Positions 3,307 to 45,668 of a DNA stretch of 50,417 bases are shown piece after piece. The notes under the pieces were generated by a model. It saw only the letters and a list, made by a program, of their open reading frames with translations. It was not told where the DNA came from and did no database searches. Each line of letters opens with the position of its first letter. Position 1 is the stretch's first letter. This stretch comes from a virus (Duplodnaviria > Heunggongvirae > Uroviricota > Caudoviricetes), in the IMG/VR virus record IMGVR_UViG_2700989535_000003, one strand, 5' to 3'. A program made the translations under genes and the position numbers.

Positions 3307-3882
3307 CTACGGCAGTGCTGGCCATTCAATATCCTGTGCAGTTGATGTATCAACACGGTTCAGCAACACCCGATACTTTTTCCAGGCTTCCAGCAATGAG
3401 GTTTCTTCCTCCGTTGCGATTTCCAGATCTACAGCATCCTGAAGTGGCGCTATATGCTCACTGGCTACCTGCATCAGGCTGTTTTTTGTTTCTTCCGCCT
3501 CCCGAATCCGGAACAGTTTTTCTGCTTCCGTATCCTTCACCCAGACTGTACCGTTCCACTTCTGAAACTCCCCTTCCGGCGATAACCAGGTAACATTTTC
3601 CGGTAACGGACCGAGTTCAGAAATAAATAACGCGTCGCCGGAAGCCACGTCATAAACCATTTTACCCCGATGATCTTCAACGAGATGCCACGATGACTCA
3701 TCACTGTTGAAAACAGCCACGAAGCCAGCCGGAATATCTGGCGGTGCAATATCGGTACTGTTTGCTGGCAGACCTGTATGAGGCGGAATATATGCATCAC
3801 CTTCACCAATAAATTCATTAGTTCCGGCCAGCAGATTATAAATTTTTATGGTCCGTGGTTGTTCACTCATTCTGAATGCCAT
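3307..3882 (-). CDS. tfa: Tail fibre assembly protein Tfa
   Basis: 191 aa ORF immediately downstream of stf, start overlapping stf stop; lambda Tfa-like sequence. Confidence 0.85.
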
Positions 3883-22547: not shown

Positions 22548-26228
<3,681 letters not shown>

Positions 26229-28686: not shown

Positions 28687-28957
28687 AATGTTACCGTAAT
28701 ATGTGAGTATCCATCGACTAGACACTAAGCAAAAAAGCTCCCGAAGGAGCCTTCATTTTCACTTTCTTAAATCTAACGACAGATGGCTAACATTTAAGTA
28801 TTGTGAAATATTATCAAATGTAATCATCATTGATTTACAAAAGATACATTTTGCCCCGAAAGGATTTCTGTCAGAAACATCAAAAGATGATGTTCTATAC
28901 TGAGAACCATGGCAACACGGGCATCTAAAGTGAATATGGTTTGTAATATTTTCTACC

Positions 28958-29173
28958 TCAAAGTGCCACTACATGAACAGCTGCAGGGCCTTTAGGTCCG
29001 TTCTCAATACCAAATTCGACTTCCTGATTCTCAGTTAACGTTTTGAAATCGTTGCTCTGAATAGCTGAGAAATGCACAAACACATCTTTGCTACCATCTT
29101 TCGGCGTGATGAAACCAAAACCTTTTTCAGGGTTAAACCATTTCACTAAACCAGTCATTTTGTTAGACATCAT
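28958..29173 (-). CDS. cspI: Cold shock protein (CspA family)
   Basis: [38 protein letters not shown] - RNP1/RNP2 cold-shock domain motifs; 70-71 aa. Confidence 0.85.
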
Positions 29174-29533
29174 TATTACCTTTTGAAGAAGTTAGCCCTT
29201 GGGCAGAATGGTCCGAAAAAAAATATCAGAGAGAAAAACCAACAAGGAAATCTCAAGAGGTACAAATAATAAAATTATAACAATGACTGCTTCAGATAAT
29301 TTTGTAACAAACCAGAACACCATTAACGCATGATTAACCAACCATAGCAAGGATTACTTTTGTAAAGAAAAACACACGAATGAAACAATAGCTTTATTTA
29401 TTAATAAAACGTGTCATTCTGTCTAATGACCTTTTATCTTACCCTTAAGATTTCAAGGATTTTGACTCATGGAAGAGTCCTTTTTATTTAAATTTCACAT
29501 TCAGCGCTAAAAATAATCCGATTTAATATTAAT

Positions 29534-30873: not shown

Positions 30874-31089
30874 TTACTCTCCTCTCGCAGCCTTACGCCT
30901 GTCTTCTTTAATCTTGAAATAAAGATTTGTCAGATACGTCAGCATGCCAAATACCAGACTACCCAATACACCTATTGCCGCCCACTGTGAGGGCGTGACT
31001 TTATCGAGCAACTGTAAAAACCAGTAGCCAGCACTGCCTGCAGAGGTGCTGTAGGCGATGCCCGTTGTTAACTTATCCATGGATTTCAT
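30874..31089 (-). CDS. Pinholin (phage 21 S-type) with dual-start motif MKSM
   Basis: 71 aa [71 protein letters not shown]; near-identical to recalled S21; strong GGAGGTGAGG SD. Confidence 0.85.
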
Positions 31090-31279
31090 AGCCTCACCTC
31101 CGCAGATAACGGATGGTGTACACGGTTTGGTTCGAAGAAGGAAAGAAGTTACATTAGCGTAAGGCCCGAACATCTATTCAAAAAGAAAAACGCCAGCAAT
31201 TATTCTGGCGTAGCTAAAAATATCGTATAATCTTACACTTCAAAAAATAACTTTATAAAATGCCATCACATCATATCTT

Positions 31280-31993
31280 CTAAGAAAATCTTGATAAATA
31301 TTGGTGCGGAGGCACACCAAAATATCCTCTAAAAACACTTACAAAATATGATGCATTGTCATACCCGCATATTCCCGCCACCTTGCCGACAGTATGGTTA
31401 CTGTAGATCAATAATCTTTGCGCCATCATCATTCGTTCTTCAAGAATTAATTTACTAAACGATAATCCTTCGTCTTTTAATTTTCTTTTTAACAAACTCT
31501 CGCTCATATATAATCTTGAAGATATATCACAAAGTCTCCATGACGCTGAGATATCCGAGTGAATAATAGCCTTAACTTTACAACCTAAGCTATTAAGACT
31601 TCCGAACAAAAAACTTTGCACCATTTTCTCTGAAGATAAGACAGCAAGACATGCAAGTGATATTTGATTTCTAACTACATCCACGGTTTTGCTATCACAA
31701 TTCAAGCATGCAACCAAGTTCTTTAACAATGAAAAATCTTCACATTCTACTATCAAGTATGACGGATAAAACCTTCTTACAGAAAAAGGTGAGAGTGTGT
31801 AGTTTTTAAAGAAATCATTAACTGTTTTCTCCTCAACATCTACGATCATTAGATGATCTGTATTTGACGAAAAAAGATCTTTTAAATTGTATTCAATGAG
31901 GACAGCATTTCCTTTTTTAAACAAAATATCTTCTTTACCAATTCGGACACCAAACGAGTTCAACACCAAAATGATAGAACATATGTATGGCAT
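31280..31993 (-). CDS. AraC/XylS-family transcriptional regulator (moron)
   Basis: C-terminal AraC-type HTH (..LSFSKLILEERMMMAQRLL.., GICGYDNASYFVSVFRGYFGVPPHQY); ATG at 31993 preceded by AGGTGG; AT-rich. Confidence 0.8.
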   Translation of the reverse strand: MPYICSIILVLNSFGVRIGKEDILFKKGNAVLIEYNLKDLFSSNTDHLMIVDVEEKTVNDFFKNYTLSPFSVRRFYPSYLIVECEDFSLLKNLVACLNCDSKTVDVVRNQISLACLAVLSSEKMVQSFLFGSLNSLGCKVKAIIHSDISASWRLCDISSRLYMSESLLKRKLKDEGLSFSKLILEERMMMAQRLLIYSNHTVGKVAGICGYDNASYFVSVFRGYFGVPPHQYLSRFS

Positions 31994-32399
31994 ATTATCC
32001 ACCTGATATCATTGGGGTTACACCAGGTAAGTATAGGTGGAAAATCAATATTCGCCAGTTCAACAATAAGGAAAATCTCATTGCATCACAACTATAAAAC
32101 CATGTGTTTAACTCACAAAAAACAAATCATTAAACTAATCTGTTATATTATAATAGCTGCGTGCAATAATAATATTATATGCTCTTAATATTCACTTGAA
32201 ATATCTTCATATAAAAACAGATTGAATAAAATCTTTTGGGGCTGGTATGTTTACCAACATTAAATTGCATCTCAATGTTTTCTTTAGCGTGAACAGGATT
32301 TTTATAAAAACTGACACTATGAGCATCATAGCGTAGTTTTTACGATTGTAAATATCCTGCATACAGGAACTCATCACTTTCAGATGATATCGCATACAG

Positions 32400-33359
32400 T
32401 TAATTCACCATCAGTCTTAGAGCCAGTTCTTCCGGATAGGGATCGAAGTAATTCTGTGTAAGCAAGTAATCATTAGGATACTCACCCAGATAATGCTTCA
32501 GCAGAGTCAACGGCGCAAGAAGAGGCAATGTGCCAAAGCGATAGTTAAGTATAACCTCGCTCAACTCTTTACGCTGGCGTGTACTTAAGTAATTACTAAA
32601 ATACCCCTGTATATGCATCAGCACATTCGTGTGATTTTTACGTGATGCTGGTTTTCTGAGAATCGCCATCAGATTATCACGATACACCTCAAAGTATGAT
32701 TCAAGGTCCGCCCACTCGTGTATTGCAGCCACAAATGGTCCCATATCTTTATAGCCTGCCTGGCTATGCGCCAACAACTGAAGCTTATAACGACTATGAA
32801 AAGCTAATAACTCTCTTCTTGATAATTTCTCCTTGTAAAGGTGATTGAGCTCATGCAAAGCAAAAACTCTTTCAATAAAATTCTCACGAAGCACTGGATC
32901 ATGTAATCGCCCATCCTCTTCAACCGGTAGCCAGGAAAACTTTTCCATCAAAGTGCTCGTAAATAGTCCCACTCCATCTTTACGACCTCGATTACCATTT
33001 TCATCATAGACACGCACGCGCTCCATGCCACAGCTGGGAGATTTAGCACAAACCACAAACCCCGATACATCCTTTAATTTGTCCATATAAGAACGACTAA
33101 ACTCTGTCATTCTCTCTGTCACATCCTCATTCTGGTCGTGGCTGAAACACATCCGTATATTTCCTTGCTTCGAGCGCACAAGTCGTAGAGCAGGACGCGG
33201 AACTGGCAGCCCTATAGCCATTTCCGGACATACTGGTCTGAATGTTACCCATTCCACTAATTTGTCCATTAAAAAGTCATCTCTTTTGTGACCACCATCA
33301 AAACGAACAGCAGAACCACCCAAACAACCGCTGATCCCAATCACAGGTTTTTTTATCAT
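32400..33359 (-). CDS. DUF523 (TudS-like Fe-S thiouracil desulfidase fold) - DUF1722 fusion protein (YbgA-like C-terminus)
   Basis: 319 aa; Cys12, Cys44, Cys104 in motifs GISGCLGG / RPVCPE / VVCAKSPSCG match the 3-Cys cluster ligands recalled for DUF523; strong GGGGGAGGA SD. Confidence 0.65.
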   Translation of the reverse strand: MIKKPVIGISGCLGGSAVRFDGGHKRDDFLMDKLVEWVTFRPVCPEMAIGLPVPRPALRLVRSKQGNIRMCFSHDQNEDVTERMTEFSRSYMDKLKDVSGFVVCAKSPSCGMERVRVYDENGNRGRKDGVGLFTSTLMEKFSWLPVEEDGRLHDPVLRENFIERVFALHELNHLYKEKLSRRELLAFHSRYKLQLLAHSQAGYKDMGPFVAAIHEWADLESYFEVYRDNLMAILRKPASRKNHTNVLMHIQGYFSNYLSTRQRKELSEVILNYRFGTLPLLAPLTLLKHYLGEYPNDYLLTQNYFDPYPEELALRLMVN

Positions 33360-33551
33360 TTCCTCCCCCTTGACTAATTCATTAACACATAAACTTTGTA
33401 GTGCACGGACTAAATTGCCTTTCTGGCTTCATCACTGACAATTTTTCTGTTATTGACTATTCCTAATATAGTAGGAAAGTTCTTTAAGTGATCGGTCGTA
33501 CTCATCTATCTTTCATACTTACTCTCAACTATCAAAAGTACAGGATTTATT

Positions 33552-34076
33552 ATGAAGTTATGGCCTGTGTTGACTGGCATTGCACTCTCTTTCACTCTTA
33601 TAGCATGTAAGGCCCCGACACCACCTAAAGGTGTGCAGCCGATTACAAATTTTGACGCCAACCGCTACCTCGGAAAATGGTATGAAATAGCTCGCCTCGA
33701 GAACTGGTTCGAACGTGGTCTGGAACAGGTCAGCGCTACTTATGAAAAACGGAACGACGGAGGGATTCGCGTACTTAACCGTGGATACGATCCAACGAAA
33801 AACAAATGGAGCGAGAGCGAAGGTAAAGCATACTTTACTGGAGATACTAAAACTGCAGCGTTGAAAGTTTCGTTTTTTGGCCCCTTCTATGGTGGCTATA
33901 ATGTAATCAAACTGGATGATGAGTATAAGTATGCTCTTGTCAGTGGTCCGAACAGAGAATACCTATGGATTCTGGCAAGGACCCAAACTATTCCAGATAA
34001 TGTAAAAGCAGACTATGTGCGTACCGCTCAAAAGTTGGGATTCAATGTCAATGAACTATTATGGGTTAAACAATAA
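33552..34076 (+). CDS. Bacterial lipocalin (Blc-like outer membrane lipoprotein)
   Basis: 174 aa; lipoprotein signal with LIAC lipobox; NFDANRYLGKWYEIARL lipocalin motif; ..FFGPFYGGYNVI.. very similar to E. coli Blc. Confidence 0.85.
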   Translation: MKLWPVLTGIALSFTLIACKAPTPPKGVQPITNFDANRYLGKWYEIARLENWFERGLEQVSATYEKRNDGGIRVLNRGYDPTKNKWSESEGKAYFTGDTKTAALKVSFFGPFYGGYNVIKLDDEYKYALVSGPNREYLWILARTQTIPDNVKADYVRTAQKLGFNVNELLWVKQ

Positions 34077-34102: not shown

Positions 34103-34131
34103 AGAAAAAAACCAGCCTTTGGGGAGGCTGG
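34103..34131 (-). terminator. Rho-independent terminator about 100 nt downstream of Q (candidate tR'-like late terminator)
   Basis: CCAGCC-N8-GGCTGG hairpin followed by an 8-nt T-run on the minus strand. Confidence 0.45.
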
Positions 34132-34231
34132 CTAAATCAGGAAACAAGCTGTTATATGATAATAACTACGTTGCGATTCCAACATTTAAAATGTTAGACT
34201 AATGAAAATCAGACAGCAACTTTTCCTTTAA

Positions 34232-38375: not shown

Positions 38376-39967
38376 AGGCTATTTACCATAACGCCTCATT
38401 ACGCGCACCGCCCAGACTGACTCAGCGCGTTTCTGGCATATCCCCAGTAAAACAAGTAACAAACCACCCGAAAATGAACACCAGAAACGCGACTTAAGAA
38501 TCTACCCTATGAATGGATATGCACTCAACCGAATCGATCTTGGTTTCAATCTTTTTTATCGGGATCAGGCTTCTTTTTAGGTAACTTCGGGGGCTTAACT
38601 TGCTGATGACTTTGCGTTCGGCGCGTAAGCCAGGGATGGTCAGCTTTAGGTTTAACATAGTATTTTGAGCGTAAATCAATACGGGCATTATCCACTCGTT
38701 CATGGACACTCTTTTCATCATCCAGTGGTATAGGCTCCGGGCCATCAACATACTTTTCCCAGCCCAGCGCTTTCCCGTCATACAGAACGTTAATTTCACC
38801 GTCAAAGTTCTCGCATACAGTAACAACCGAATGCCTAAGTCGATATCCCCGGCTCTCACTGCGTACCTGAAACGCACTGCTTTTGTACTGGAAAGTGAGA
38901 TTTTTAGACAGAACGCGCTTCGCCTGTAGGCTGAAGATATAACCCAGTTCCTCTTCAGAATGGTGCACATCAAGATGAGCATTATCAGTAGTACGAGGCG
39001 ACGTAGCGAACCGGTTGTTATAGGCTTCAATAAAGGTCGGCAACCATGCATTTGCTGTTTCAATATCACTGATATTCTGAAGCCGCATTTCTTTGACCAG
39101 CCTGTCCTGTAGTGTCTGATTGGCGCGCTCTACCCGCCCTTTTGCCTGCGGGCTGTTGGCATGGATTGGCTCGATGCCCAGTGTCTTTATCGCACGAGTG
39201 AACTGGGTCAGCTCACCTTCCCGCTCTGGGTTATTTACCCTGAATATACTGTGTCTATCAGAGTAGAGAGCGAGCGGTACGCCATGATCATTAAGGTAAC
39301 CCCGGAGGGTTTCCATGTAAGCCCGGGTTGTTTCAGCAGGCACAAAACGCAACGCCATCAACGCACTGGTGGCATCATCAATGAAAACGATCAGTGTACA
39401 TCTGGGGCCTCGATTTTCAAACCAGTCATGAGGTGAGCCATCAATCTGGATCAGTTCACCGTAAGATGGTCGTCGCATGCGGCGTTGATATATACGGGCA
39501 ATTTTACGACGGCGTTCACGCCATAACCCCTCTTCTATCATCCACTTTCTGAGAGTTTCAACGGATAAAGATAAACCGTGTATCTCGCGCAATTTTTCGC
39601 ACGCAAACGTAGGTCCAAAATCAGCGTAACGGCTTTTGAGGAGTGAAATTACTGTTGCTCTGAATTCAGTAGAAAAGGAATTATTAGGACGCTTTCCACG
39701 TCGGTGGGAAACCAGACCAGAAGGCCCTTCATTTCTATACCGTTGCACCAGACGTTTAACCTGCCGAATAGAAATGCCAATGCGTGCCGCAGCTTGTTCC
39801 TGAGTAATATGTCGATTAATTGACTCCTGAATAATCTGAAGTCGGTGGAGTTCCTTATGACTCATCGTAACAGTCTCTTTGATCATGAAAAATCCCCCAG
39901 AGAATTGTCTGGGGACATTTTAGAATGGTTCAAAGGGGACATTACAGCTTGGTGTTAACAAATAGCC
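38376..39967. mobile_element. Candidate insertion sequence (about 1.6 kb) with imperfect terminal inverted repeats
   Basis: Left AGGCTATTTACCATAACGCC (38376..38395) vs reverse complement of right end GGTGTTAACAAATAGCCT (39950..39967): 9 identical outer bases then about 6/8; encloses the DDE transposase. Boundaries approximate; no target-site duplication verified. Confidence 0.4.
38546..39886 (-). CDS. DDE transposase (N-terminal HTH + rve/integrase-core domain; IS481/ISNCY-like, family unresolved)
   Basis: 446 aa; HTH (ITQEQAAARIGISIRQVKRLVQRY) and integrase-core region with D..D..E-type spacing (QIDGSPHDWF..., LYSDRHSIF..., KGRVERANQTLQD). Confidence 0.75.
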   Translation of the reverse strand: MIKETVTMSHKELHRLQIIQESINRHITQEQAAARIGISIRQVKRLVQRYRNEGPSGLVSHRRGKRPNNSFSTEFRATVISLLKSRYADFGPTFACEKLREIHGLSLSVETLRKWMIEEGLWRERRRKIARIYQRRMRRPSYGELIQIDGSPHDWFENRGPRCTLIVFIDDATSALMALRFVPAETTRAYMETLRGYLNDHGVPLALYSDRHSIFRVNNPEREGELTQFTRAIKTLGIEPIHANSPQAKGRVERANQTLQDRLVKEMRLQNISDIETANAWLPTFIEAYNNRFATSPRTTDNAHLDVHHSEEELGYIFSLQAKRVLSKNLTFQYKSSAFQVRSESRGYRLRHSVVTVCENFDGEINVLYDGKALGWEKYVDGPEPIPLDDEKSVHERVDNARIDLRSKYYVKPKADHPWLTRRTQSHQQVKPPKLPKKKPDPDKKD

Positions 39968-40145
39968 TGCTTCTCCTTGCCTTTCGGCACGTAAGAGGCT
40001 AACCTACATGTGTCTAGCATGAAATTGGCCTCAGATTAATGTTAAGCGTCTTGCAGGACGCGTAATGTTAACTGGGGCTTTTCTCTATCTGCCGTTGGTG
40101 TTCATGCCCGAGGCAGATAGCCTCAAGCACCCGCAGCAATTTTAC

Positions 40146-40423: not shown

Positions 40424-41455
40424 CTACCAATTGATGAAGTCAGTGATGTTATCCAACATGGTTACAGTAACTTCCCGTCCTAACAAATATTGCCAGTATG
40501 CCTCACGGTCATTTTGTTCACCTGCACCGCTCCACTCAATTACTCTTAAATGCTTAGAGGTTAGGTAAGGCCGAATAAGCAGGTTAAGGTGTTCATCGAG
40601 GCCAGAATAACCAAACAGTATTATTTCTTCTGATTCAAATAATGCAAACTGCAAATAATCCCAGTACGTAGAAAGAACATTAGATGCTGCTATAACTGAC
40701 GGTTTCCTTTTTATATGCGTTAACACTATATGTTCGCTAGGCTCATCCCTGTCAACCGTAAGTTGAGAACGTGAAAGTTTTAAGACGGTCTCACCCTGAT
40801 TAACAAATAGTGGTGAGCCATGCAAATGCAAATAATAACCAAACCTACGATTATATTTCCGTTCGAGCGCTTCGGCGGAAAATCCGTGGCCTAACATCCC
40901 ATCAACCAGATACCCATCATACCCGCTGAATATATCATTATCTATGAATGAGTTGTATAATAATTTGTCATAGTTTAATGTCGCAATATGAGTGCGTGTA
41001 TTTTTTACAAATTCCACTAGCGCATTTTCGAATCTTTGCGGCAACCCTTCACCGTAATTATGCAAACTAGTTGCAACTTTGTGGATATAAGTGGCGGTGA
41101 TTTCGGGGAAGTTTAGTCCATCGTCAGTAAGCCAATGCTCGTTTCCTTCTCCAATTTGCGCAAGAGCCTTACAATATGTGATAGCTTGGTGAAGGGTATC
41201 CAACTCATGTTCCCCTGCCGGTGGACCTTGCCGCTGAAGACAACGTTCGATAAGTTGCTTATGGACATCGTTTAAGAAATTGGATCGATGCCAAATTTCT
41301 GCCAACGCCCTGTCTAAGGAAAAATGAGCAGGATCTAAAGCCATACCAAGACCGTTGCCGAATATTATTAATTTTCGTGCCATATAGGAGGACTCATGTT
41401 GGAATAATCTTGAGTAGCGTAACGCGATACGCCGCAGTTTGGAAGTAATATACAT
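40424..41455 (-). CDS. SIR2-like (SIR2_2-type) protein, candidate NAD+-consuming defence effector
   Basis: 343 aa; motifs IIFGNGLGMALDP (Gly loop), IATLNYDKLLY (TTNYD-like), YLHLHGSPLF (His motif), ILFGYSGLDEH; AT-rich context. Start may be the internal ATG at 41383. Confidence 0.55.
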   Translation of the reverse strand: MYITSKLRRIALRYSRLFQHESSYMARKLIIFGNGLGMALDPAHFSLDRALAEIWHRSNFLNDVHKQLIERCLQRQGPPAGEHELDTLHQAITYCKALAQIGEGNEHWLTDDGLNFPEITATYIHKVATSLHNYGEGLPQRFENALVEFVKNTRTHIATLNYDKLLYNSFIDNDIFSGYDGYLVDGMLGHGFSAEALERKYNRRFGYYLHLHGSPLFVNQGETVLKLSRSQLTVDRDEPSEHIVLTHIKRKPSVIAASNVLSTYWDYLQFALFESEEIILFGYSGLDEHLNLLIRPYLTSKHLRVIEWSGAGEQNDREAYWQYLLGREVTVTMLDNITDFINW

Positions 41456-45610: not shown

Positions 45611-45668
45611 TTTCTGGTGACGTTTGGCGGTATCAGTTTTACTCCGTGACTGCTCTGCCGCCGTTTTT
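45611..45668 (+). ncRNA. dicF: DicF small regulatory RNA
   Basis: TTTCTGGTGACGTTTGGCGGTATCAGTTTTACTCCGTGACTGCTCTGCCGCC followed by TTTTT matches the recalled 53-nt DicF sequence (1 difference near the 3' end); located between the ydfC-like ORF and dicB. Confidence 0.6.

Follow-up and report, generated by a model that had tools for sequence, protein, structure and literature searches.

A two-module moron cassette with RudS, a Blc-like lipocalin and an AraC-like regulator between Q and the holin of a Qin-like Escherichia coli prophage

The 50,417-nt IMG/VR virus record IMGVR_UViG_2700989535_000003 (Caudoviricetes), hereafter the window, to whose full length all positions refer, is a Qin/DLP12-like lambdoid prophage of Escherichia coli. 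Between its antiterminator gene Q and its holin gene it carries three cargo genes: blc2, encoding a lipocalin lipoprotein, rudS, encoding a protein with fused TudS (DUF523) and DUF1722 domains, and an araC-like regulatory gene. The cassette represents moron cargo in the classic Q-to-S slot. Its overall best explanation, to which we assign a probability of roughly 0.7, is that of a composite conversion cassette inherited together with a Q gene of the QuuD/Q21 type. It is not a single unit: two modules, differing in origin and in divergence, move together with one type of Q allele. Module A, the divergent pair of blc2 and rudS, is a pared-down copy of a conserved enterobacterial chromosomal locus, and module B is an AT-rich, separately acquired regulator gene of the PatE/Psr/YdeO type.

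The window carries relBE, hokD, rem, ydfU, ydfR, rrrQ, cspI and DicF, and a blastn comparison with the Qin prophage of K-12 showed collinearity up to position 31118 and again from 34627. Between these joints K-12 Qin holds ydfT (its Q gene), cspF, cspB and ynfU, and the window holds a QuuD-type Q and the three cargo genes. As collinearity is broken between 31119 and 34626, the exchanged unit comprises Q together with its downstream cargo, 3.5 kb in total. The Q protein shares 86% amino acid identity with K-12 QuuD, is unrelated to YdfT of K-12 Qin, and matches the structurally solved Q21 distantly (5e-9). The open reading frame (ORF) list and the Pfam matches agree with the initial annotation in placing three non-phage genes here, with rudS and araC on the late-operon strand and blc antisense to it. 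All features are compiled in Table 1.

Table 1. Features of the exchanged module and its flanks, listed from Q towards the holin
Feature	Position	Strand	Remarks
Q, antiterminator gene, QuuD/Q21 type	34232-34609/34624	-	Pfam PF06530 (Phage_antitermQ), 8e-51; left end of exchanged module
Candidate late promoter pR'	34191-34219	-	TTGCTG-17-TAACAT; read from the sequence; weak
T1, predicted tR'-like intrinsic terminator	34105-34133	-	~100 nt past Q; 9-bp stem + U7; -14.9 kcal/mol, z -3.5
blc2, outer-membrane lipocalin lipoprotein	33552-34076	+	174 aa; antisense to late operon
-10-like element CATACTTA	33514-33521	+	upstream of blc; aligns with chromosomal CTACACTTAA
18-bp near-perfect dyad TTCCTAATATAGTAGGAA	33460-33477		blc-rudS spacer; aligned block conserved across 38 unique chromosomal blc2-merR spacers
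rudS	32400-33359	-	319 aa; TudS(DUF523)-DUF1722 [4Fe-4S] protein
ORF, 62 aa	32207-32395	-	rudS-araC spacer; overlaps T2; annotated gene in phage IdasGreatGrand
T2, predicted terminator	32306-32341	-	past rudS, approximate end of the rudS-blc module; -17.6 kcal/mol, z -7.0; A-run/U-run on either side
Candidate araC promoter	32091-32118	-	TTGTGA-16-TATAGT; consensus scan 9/12; weak, such matches not above shuffles
ORF, 58 aa	32012-32188	+	AT-rich rudS-araC spacer
araC-like gene	31280-31993	-	ATG start, 237 aa; extendable to GTG at 32002
T3, predicted terminator	31180-31211	-	past araC, ~90 nt before holin start; 7-bp stem + U5CU5; -11.3 kcal/mol
Holin gene, EssD/EssQ (P21) type	30874-31089	-	Pfam PF04971, 6e-34; first lysis gene, right flank of cargo slot

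The same slot is filled differently in related phages, as expected for a classic cargo site: cspB/cspF are found in K-12 Qin, nmpC in DLP12, ev243 and mEp332, and the AraC-like regulator gene psrA, followed by three tRNA genes, in Sp4 of O157 Sakai. The cargo also deviates in guanine-plus-cytosine (GC) content, with 31-44% against 47-50%. In detail, the values are 33.6% for araC, 28-36% for the four spacers, 43.1% for rudS, 43.8% for blc, 47% for Q and the holin gene, and 49.7% for the window. The initial annotation described an AT-rich island; this description is well justified for the araC part and moderately so for rudS and blc, but not in its implication of a single unit. Predicted terminators of their own follow rudS (T2) and araC (T3). 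Candidate promoter elements comprise the -10-like element and the dyad for blc and the 9/12 site for araC, with scan matches not exceeding those in shuffled sequence; for rudS no convincing candidate was seen.

Among the established systems, a close parallel is provided by the porin genes nmpC/lc, carried as morons by DLP12, ev243 and mEp332. These occupy the same slot behind a Q that is 86-87% identical to that of the window, and their first cargo gene encodes an outer-membrane protein and runs antisense to the late operon, as blc does here. The stx genes of Stx phages, the classic Q-S cargo, sit in the same slot although the genes are others. Unlike nmpC/lc and stx, the cargo of the window comprises three genes and is accompanied by three terminators on the late strand.

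RudS and the chromosomal origin of the blc-rudS pair

The assignment of the central gene to the DUF523-DUF1722 family is supported by Pfam, with PF04463 matching residues 7-149 (5.8e-40) and PF08349 matching residues 192-309 (9.4e-40). Fusions of these domains have been described as RudS, i.e. tRNA 4-thiouridine desulfidases (Jamontas et al. 2024, PMC11417400), and on the basis of its sequence the protein is identified as a RudS, predicted to act on 4-thiouridine at position 8 of tRNA (s4U8), with desulfidation of tRNA s4U known from an orthologue. Alignment to TudS (PDB 6Z92) indicates that the [4Fe-4S] cluster is coordinated by Cys12, Cys44 and Cys110, the last within the motif S107-P-S109-C110, equivalent to C10, C43 and C104 of TudS; the numbering is the same as that given for the phage orthologue RudS_vir in Table 1 of PMC11417400. 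Of the ligands named initially, Cys12 and Cys44 are thus retained, whereas Cys104, although present, is not the residue that aligns with the third ligand. The catalytic residues E46, S107, S109 and R55 are all present as well, so that every residue whose mutation abolishes activity in RudS_KT has its counterpart here (C12, C44, C110, E46, S107, S109 and R55).

RudS_vir (gp66, H3V29_gp66) of Escherichia phage 1H12 is among six RudS proteins that were expressed in E. coli and lowered the s4U content of tRNA (PMC11417400). All RudS tested had this effect, none rescued growth in the manner of TudS, and RudS overexpression shortened the growth delay of E. coli under ultraviolet A (UVA) light (PMC11417400). 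The RudS of the window shares 91.8% amino acid identity with RudS_vir (26 substitutions), the two-domain architecture, the length of 319 residues, the Cys12/44/110 ligands and the Glu/Ser/Ser/Arg set. Moreover, the order Q, blc, rudS, araC-like gene and holin gene is the same in 1H12. Since such a close relative has been assayed, the function of RudS in phages is known at the enzyme level, and the initial statement that a TudS-like enzyme has no known function in a phage is outdated. An anti-defence role, raised at the same time, was rejected, as a PADLOC scan of the three cargo proteins and the 62-aa ORF gave no match. The RudS paper, the only one retrieved by a literature search with the protein accession, leaves the setting within a prophage undiscussed and describes E. 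coli as having no RudS (PMC11417400).

Comparison with the single-domain relatives further delimits the protein. Its N-terminal domain aligns with TudS (PDB 6Z92) including all ligands and catalytic residues, and its C-terminal domain is 49% identical to the stand-alone DUF1722 protein YbgA of E. coli K-12; in contrast to both, the window RudS is a fusion, and it scores below the NCBIfam TudS-related cut-off. Neither TudS nor YbgA erases s4U from tRNA as RudS does (PMC11417400). Against the YbgA equivalog (NCBIfam PRK10167) the protein reaches 189.1 bits at a cut-off of 237, and only with its C-terminal half. The label "YbgA family protein" in RefSeq denotes the domain rather than orthology.

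The second gene of the pair encodes a lipocalin that passes the NCBIfam Blc model (NF007786; 312.6 bits, cut-off 267) and matches Lipocalin_2 (PF08212; 7.5e-43), which agrees with its initial designation as Blc-like. A lipoprotein signal peptide (MKLWPVLTGIALSFTLIAC) and the lipobox LIAC with Cys19 are present. In length class, lipobox and Lipocalin_2 domain the protein resembles E. coli Blc (b4149), to which it is 59% identical. Blc is, however, encoded by an ampC-linked gene. The window lipocalin is a separate paralogue, and the genes of its relatives on chromosomes adjoin rudS: it is 78-80% identical to the rudS-adjacent second lipocalin of Enterobacter (80%), Leclercia and Citrobacter sedlakii. 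Orthology with the ampC-linked chromosomal blc is thereby not supported (59% to b4149 vs 80% to the rudS-linked Enterobacter paralogue). Mathieu et al. 2020 (PMC6969025) had already recognised blc as moron cargo, which they list for more than half of the lambda-like phages of E. coli from the infant gut.

The link between the two genes becomes apparent from bacterial chromosomes. When a single genome was scanned for each species, 62 chromosomal rudS loci were identified in Enterobacterales, with 66-76% amino acid identity; the chromosomal RudS group includes proteins of E. cloacae and Salmonella (ORF319/RudS_ST; PMC11417400). The divergent placement of blc2 upstream of rudS seen in the phage recurs in Enterobacter, Citrobacter and Leclercia, among others. 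The order blc2<, merR>, transthyretin-like>, rudS> was found in 36 of the 62 species loci, and a direct adjacency of blc2< and rudS>, as in the phage, in three, including C. sedlakii. The merR product is of the MlrA/BluR type (40% identical to MlrA, 36% to BluR) and represents a third MlrA paralogue. Because the phage pair reproduces the divergent arrangement of this conserved enterobacterial locus, phage blc-rudS is a trimmed copy of it. A MerR-type box (ACTTGGACAAAT...TTGTGTAACTTT) stands directly upstream of rudS in the blc2/merR/transthyretin (HIUase)-like/rudS locus (chromosomal locus L028, 5021-7960, and 35 similar loci).

Three elements of the chromosomal loci are missing from the phage copy, namely merR (MlrA/BluR-like), the gene for the transthyretin-like protein and the MerR-type box before rudS; upstream of rudS, phage and chromosomal sequences showed no conservation. 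Upstream of blc2, by contrast, some 110 bp have been retained in the phage, including the dyad and the -10-like element. The dyad listed in Table 1 falls in the blc-rudS spacer, and its alignment with the chromosomal block suggests that it is a relic of the blc2/merR control region. The -10-like element of blc aligns with a chromosomal counterpart that we take to fit the sigma-S -10 consensus. Control of the dyad by host BluR/BluF was considered and dismissed as no more than a lead, as the bluF-ycgZ and bluR-bluF spacers of K-12, the only sequence scanned, contain no similar dyad and the chromosomal regulator is only 36% and 40% identical to BluR and MlrA. The GC content of chromosomal rudS/blc2 is 57-60% vs 43% for the phage copy, and synonymous sites of blc2-rudS are saturated between phage and chromosome; taken together, this indicates that the capture is old or involved an unsampled donor.

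The AraC-like regulator and the two-module structure

The third cargo protein contains a C-terminal HTH_18 domain (Pfam, 3.2e-16), in line with its initial classification as AraC-like, and belongs to PHROG 1450. Over its full length it is 48% identical to ECs_0287 of Sakai, 38% to PsrA, 33% to GadW, 30% to AppY and 29% to YdeO; identity to YbcM is 23%. ECs_0287 is the only AraC-type gene of Sakai Sp1 (OI-8) and is, for this reason, presumed to be PatE/z0321. Judged from these sequence relationships, the protein is a member of the YdeO/GadX/GadW/AppY/PatE/Psr clade of AraC/XylS regulators. PatE, PsrA, PsrB, AppY, YdeO and GadW are of similar length (237-253 residues) and share the N-terminal motif M-x-x-(V/I)-C-S-(V/I)-I as well as the C-terminal HTH_18 domain. 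Like the window protein, PatE, PsrA and PsrB of enterohaemorrhagic E. coli are borne by prophages, and PsrA lies in the very same Q-to-S slot of Sakai Sp4. According to reviews and the AppY paper, every clade member that has been characterised (PatE, PsrB, AppY, YdeO, GadX/W) works on acid resistance through the GAD/hdeAB regulon, with activation of gadE/hdeAB. By analogy, the AraC-like protein would most likely act within this host regulon, too.

The comparison also bears on the annotation of psrA itself (ECs_1087; 23678-24391 of the Sakai Sp4 locus, L006). The annotated product has 195 residues, but the reading frame extends to 237 with the N-terminus typical of the clade (MVVVCSVIMV), and the RefSeq start is probably placed too far downstream.

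The divergence of the three genes from their 1H12 counterparts is uneven, with numbers of synonymous substitutions per site (dS) of 0.59 for araC, 0.30 for rudS and 0.18 for blc. Megablast homology to 1H12 breaks at ~32282, just past the rudS terminator T2. Based on its lower GC content, its higher dS and this break, the araC module is regarded as separately acquired. The 62-aa and 58-aa ORFs in the rudS-araC spacer were treated as non-coding, as neither has a family match and the former overlaps T2.

Distribution, selection and disruption

Of 5426 complete E. coli genomes searched with the 3,052-bp island, 1154 matched it in whole or in part. Among these, 883 genomes contain 80% or more of it, and the araC module is present at ≥80% nucleotide identity in ~1037. 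For the exact RudS protein of the window, there are records from at least 1000 contigs. Two papers describe E. coli as devoid of RudS (PMC11417400, PMC13602947), which does not apply to about one fifth of strains. The cassette is likewise found in plaque-forming phages, namely IdasGreatGrand, 1H12 and ten "Lambda_ev" relatives. Among 80 IMG/VR contigs selected on rudS, the full order Q>, blc<, rudS>, araC>, holin was seen in 70; four have no araC, and the remainder are cut by contig ends. These loci reside in two backbones, one of the ydfU/ydfR/RrrQ type and one of the rusA/RrrD type. The trio is therefore co-conserved in other prophages and isolated phages, and none of the outcomes named in the initial annotation as refuting it was observed. 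Two short contigs (L059 and L064), binned as a Saccharibacteria metagenome-assembled genome ("Candidatus Nanosynbacter sp."), encode Q, blc, rudS, araC and the holin at 85-98% amino acid identity and are almost certainly a binning contamination.

The three genes are under purifying selection, with pairwise ratios of non-synonymous to synonymous substitution (dN/dS) of 0.07-0.25 among three alleles across rudS, blc and araC. All three cargo proteins fall into existing PHROGs that are annotated as "unknown function". Deletions and insertions by insertion sequence (IS) elements IS1, IS2 and IS3 are common in the cassette, and IS3, IS2 and IS1 were repeatedly encountered inside it in unrelated strains (e.g. 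our hits H5-H7, H15-H17, H112, H128, H135 and H144). The same Qin-like module is present in laboratory B strains, with C41(DE3) (L078, NZ_CP010585.1, 1588189-1589052) and BL21 derivatives as examples. Here, blc is intact and encodes a protein identical to that of the window, and rudS is cut by IS3 to an N-terminal stub of 49 codons. BL21(DE3) was the host of the published RudS UVA experiments. In strain ZF8-1, IS1 stands in place of araC.

Late transcription and alternative explanations

T1, a short distance past Q, is conserved in all three cassette-bearing phages compared, and T3 in 1H12 and IdasGreatGrand. The candidate pR' was found in the same two phages, with an invariant -35 hexamer and a -10 hexamer that keeps TAnnnT, albeit it was not picked by the consensus scan. 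Between the Q-blc spacer of the window and nmpC-type Q spacers only short blocks are common (ATATAACAG). On reading the Q-blc spacer no obvious copy of the Q21 Q-binding element (QBE) repeat TGAGCA was noticed, although no systematic search was made. Rfam at gathering thresholds returned no known RNA element between Q and the holin gene.

The favoured reading, a composite conversion cassette inherited with its Q, can be outlined as follows. In the lysogen, Blc2 is probably made from its retained sigma-S-like promoter. The AraC-like regulator would feed into the host GAD/hdeAB regulon. RudS, via its [4Fe-4S] cluster, would convert s4U8 of host tRNA back to uridine and so remove the near-UV chromophore through which tRNA becomes cross-linked, the stringent response is triggered and growth is delayed. 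A terminator of its own after each late-strand gene would keep the lysis genes insulated in the lysogen. Upon induction, Q-modified RNA polymerase would start just downstream of Q and have to override T1, T2 and T3, thereby transcribing rudS and araC in the sense and blc in the antisense direction before it arrives at the holin gene. Such Q-dependent read-through of rudS and araC to the lysis genes, already envisaged in the initial annotation, is plausible from the layout.

Several observations weigh against this scheme. The consensus scan returned 13 promoter-like sites in the region vs 11.5 expected from shuffles, and phage rudS has neither the MerR-type regulator nor the MerR-type promoter of its chromosomal relatives. 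As judged from this loss, rudS may not be expressed in lysogens at all. In the published assays, tRNA desulfidation by RudS_vir fell below that of other orthologues despite good amounts of soluble protein, and its lag on 4-thiouracil was the shortest (PMC11417400). The AraC-like protein shares only 48% identity with the closest of the relatives that have been characterised. It reaches no curated NCBIfam cut-off for a named regulator (YdeO, GadX, HilD and others), YdeO being the best (112.7 vs 348 bits) and GadX scoring 90.4 vs 500 bits. Finally, the frequent IS disruption implies that the cassette is dispensable.

Part of this evidence would be accommodated if rudS were primarily a lytic auxiliary gene that depends chiefly on Q-antiterminated late transcription, with erasure of s4U8 protecting the translation of late proteins from near-UV cross-linking during induction in sunlight. 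The orientation of rudS on the late-operon strand downstream of the tR'-like T1, the absence of the merR gene and its cognate box, and the lack of any late-strand site of at least 9/12 in the 192-bp rudS-blc spacer fit this explanation, as does the shortened UVA growth delay upon RudS overexpression. Yet the retained dyad holds TATATT on the rudS strand, which could still drive expression in the lysogen. The island spacers contain no LexA box (CTGT-N8-ACAG, one mismatch or fewer; window-wide counts are at chance) or other induction-linked signal, and within a lytic cycle of ~1 h tRNA may turn over too slowly for erasure to make a difference. A predominantly lytic role is thus considered possible, though not probable. 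Rather doubtful is the further-reaching scenario of a tRNA-modification eraser that was stripped of light-linked MerR control and rewired behind a Q-dependent late promoter, so that induction in sunlight would remove the s4U8 near-UV sensor and keep translation running; as a corollary, about one fifth of E. coli strains would have an s4U level and a UVA response that depend on RudS and vary between strains, contrary to the literature. The behaviour of RudS_vir could alternatively mean that phage RudS acts mainly on free thiolated bases or nucleotides, in salvage or detoxification of 4-thiouracil or 4-thio-UMP, and not on tRNA. Its short lag on 4-thiouracil, its comparatively low tRNA desulfidation and the complete TudS core of the window protein agree with this proposal. 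It is nonetheless unlikely, as the tested RudS uniformly lowered tRNA s4U and never rescued growth like TudS, and the tRNA-binding DUF1722 domain is intact and under purifying selection (whole-gene dN/dS of rudS 0.11-0.22).

The AraC-like protein, for its part, might serve as a local cassette regulator that replaces the lost MerR and controls blc and rudS via the AT-rich spacers rather than host acid resistance. The trio is nearly always together, as reflected by the similar numbers of genomes with ≥80% of the island and with the araC module, and rudS is followed by araC in 72 of 80 IMG/VR loci; the native MerR regulator is missing from the phage. On the other hand, the araC module has a separate history (GC content 33.6% vs 43%, dS 0.59 vs 0.30 and 0.18, and the joint at ~32282), its paralogues PatE and PsrA occur in prophages devoid of rudS and blc, and the characterised relatives all act in trans on host genes, rendering purely local control improbable. 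That the cassette is functionless passenger DNA, hitch-hiking with a successful Q allele, would explain the disrupted copies, such as the truncated rudS of BL21 and C41(DE3) and the replacement of araC by IS1 in ZF8-1. This explanation is very hard to reconcile with three ORFs that are intact in most copies and show dN/dS of 0.07-0.25 over dS of 0.2-0.6, with intact RudS catalytic residues, and with the retention of the cassette in plaque-forming phages, which have tight genomes.

Elsewhere in the prophage, the early region contains a stand-alone SIR2-like gene (40424-41455, minus strand; Pfam SIR2_2, 26.5 bits; weak PADLOC SIR2/Aga_SIR2 matches). It adjoins an IS-type transposase ORF at 38546-39886 and is possibly a prophage-borne defence gene. 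Rfam matches comprise a cspA-type thermoregulator leader upstream of cspI (28912-29328, minus strand), the sok antitoxin RNA of the hokD locus (39961-40132, minus strand), DicF (45612-45663, plus strand) and IS009 (3341-3539, minus strand).

In summary, the cassette is largely ordinary as a genome feature, being a fresh copy of a known and very common prophage cargo. Each part has been described before, two of the three genes in phages. What is new is the chromosomal ancestry of blc-rudS and the losses on capture, the Q-linked two-module structure, the three-terminator layout and the occurrence of RudS in about one fifth of E. coli genomes. The trimmed blc2/MlrA-like MerR/transthyretin-like/rudS locus links lipocalin and RudS functionally and provides a natural "regulator-less" variant. 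With the AraC-like gene, an uncharacterised and very widespread branch is added to the PatE/Psr/AppY group, whose prophage-borne members rewire acid resistance. A check for rudS is advisable wherever s4U, UVA growth delay or thiouracil labelling is studied in strains other than K-12.

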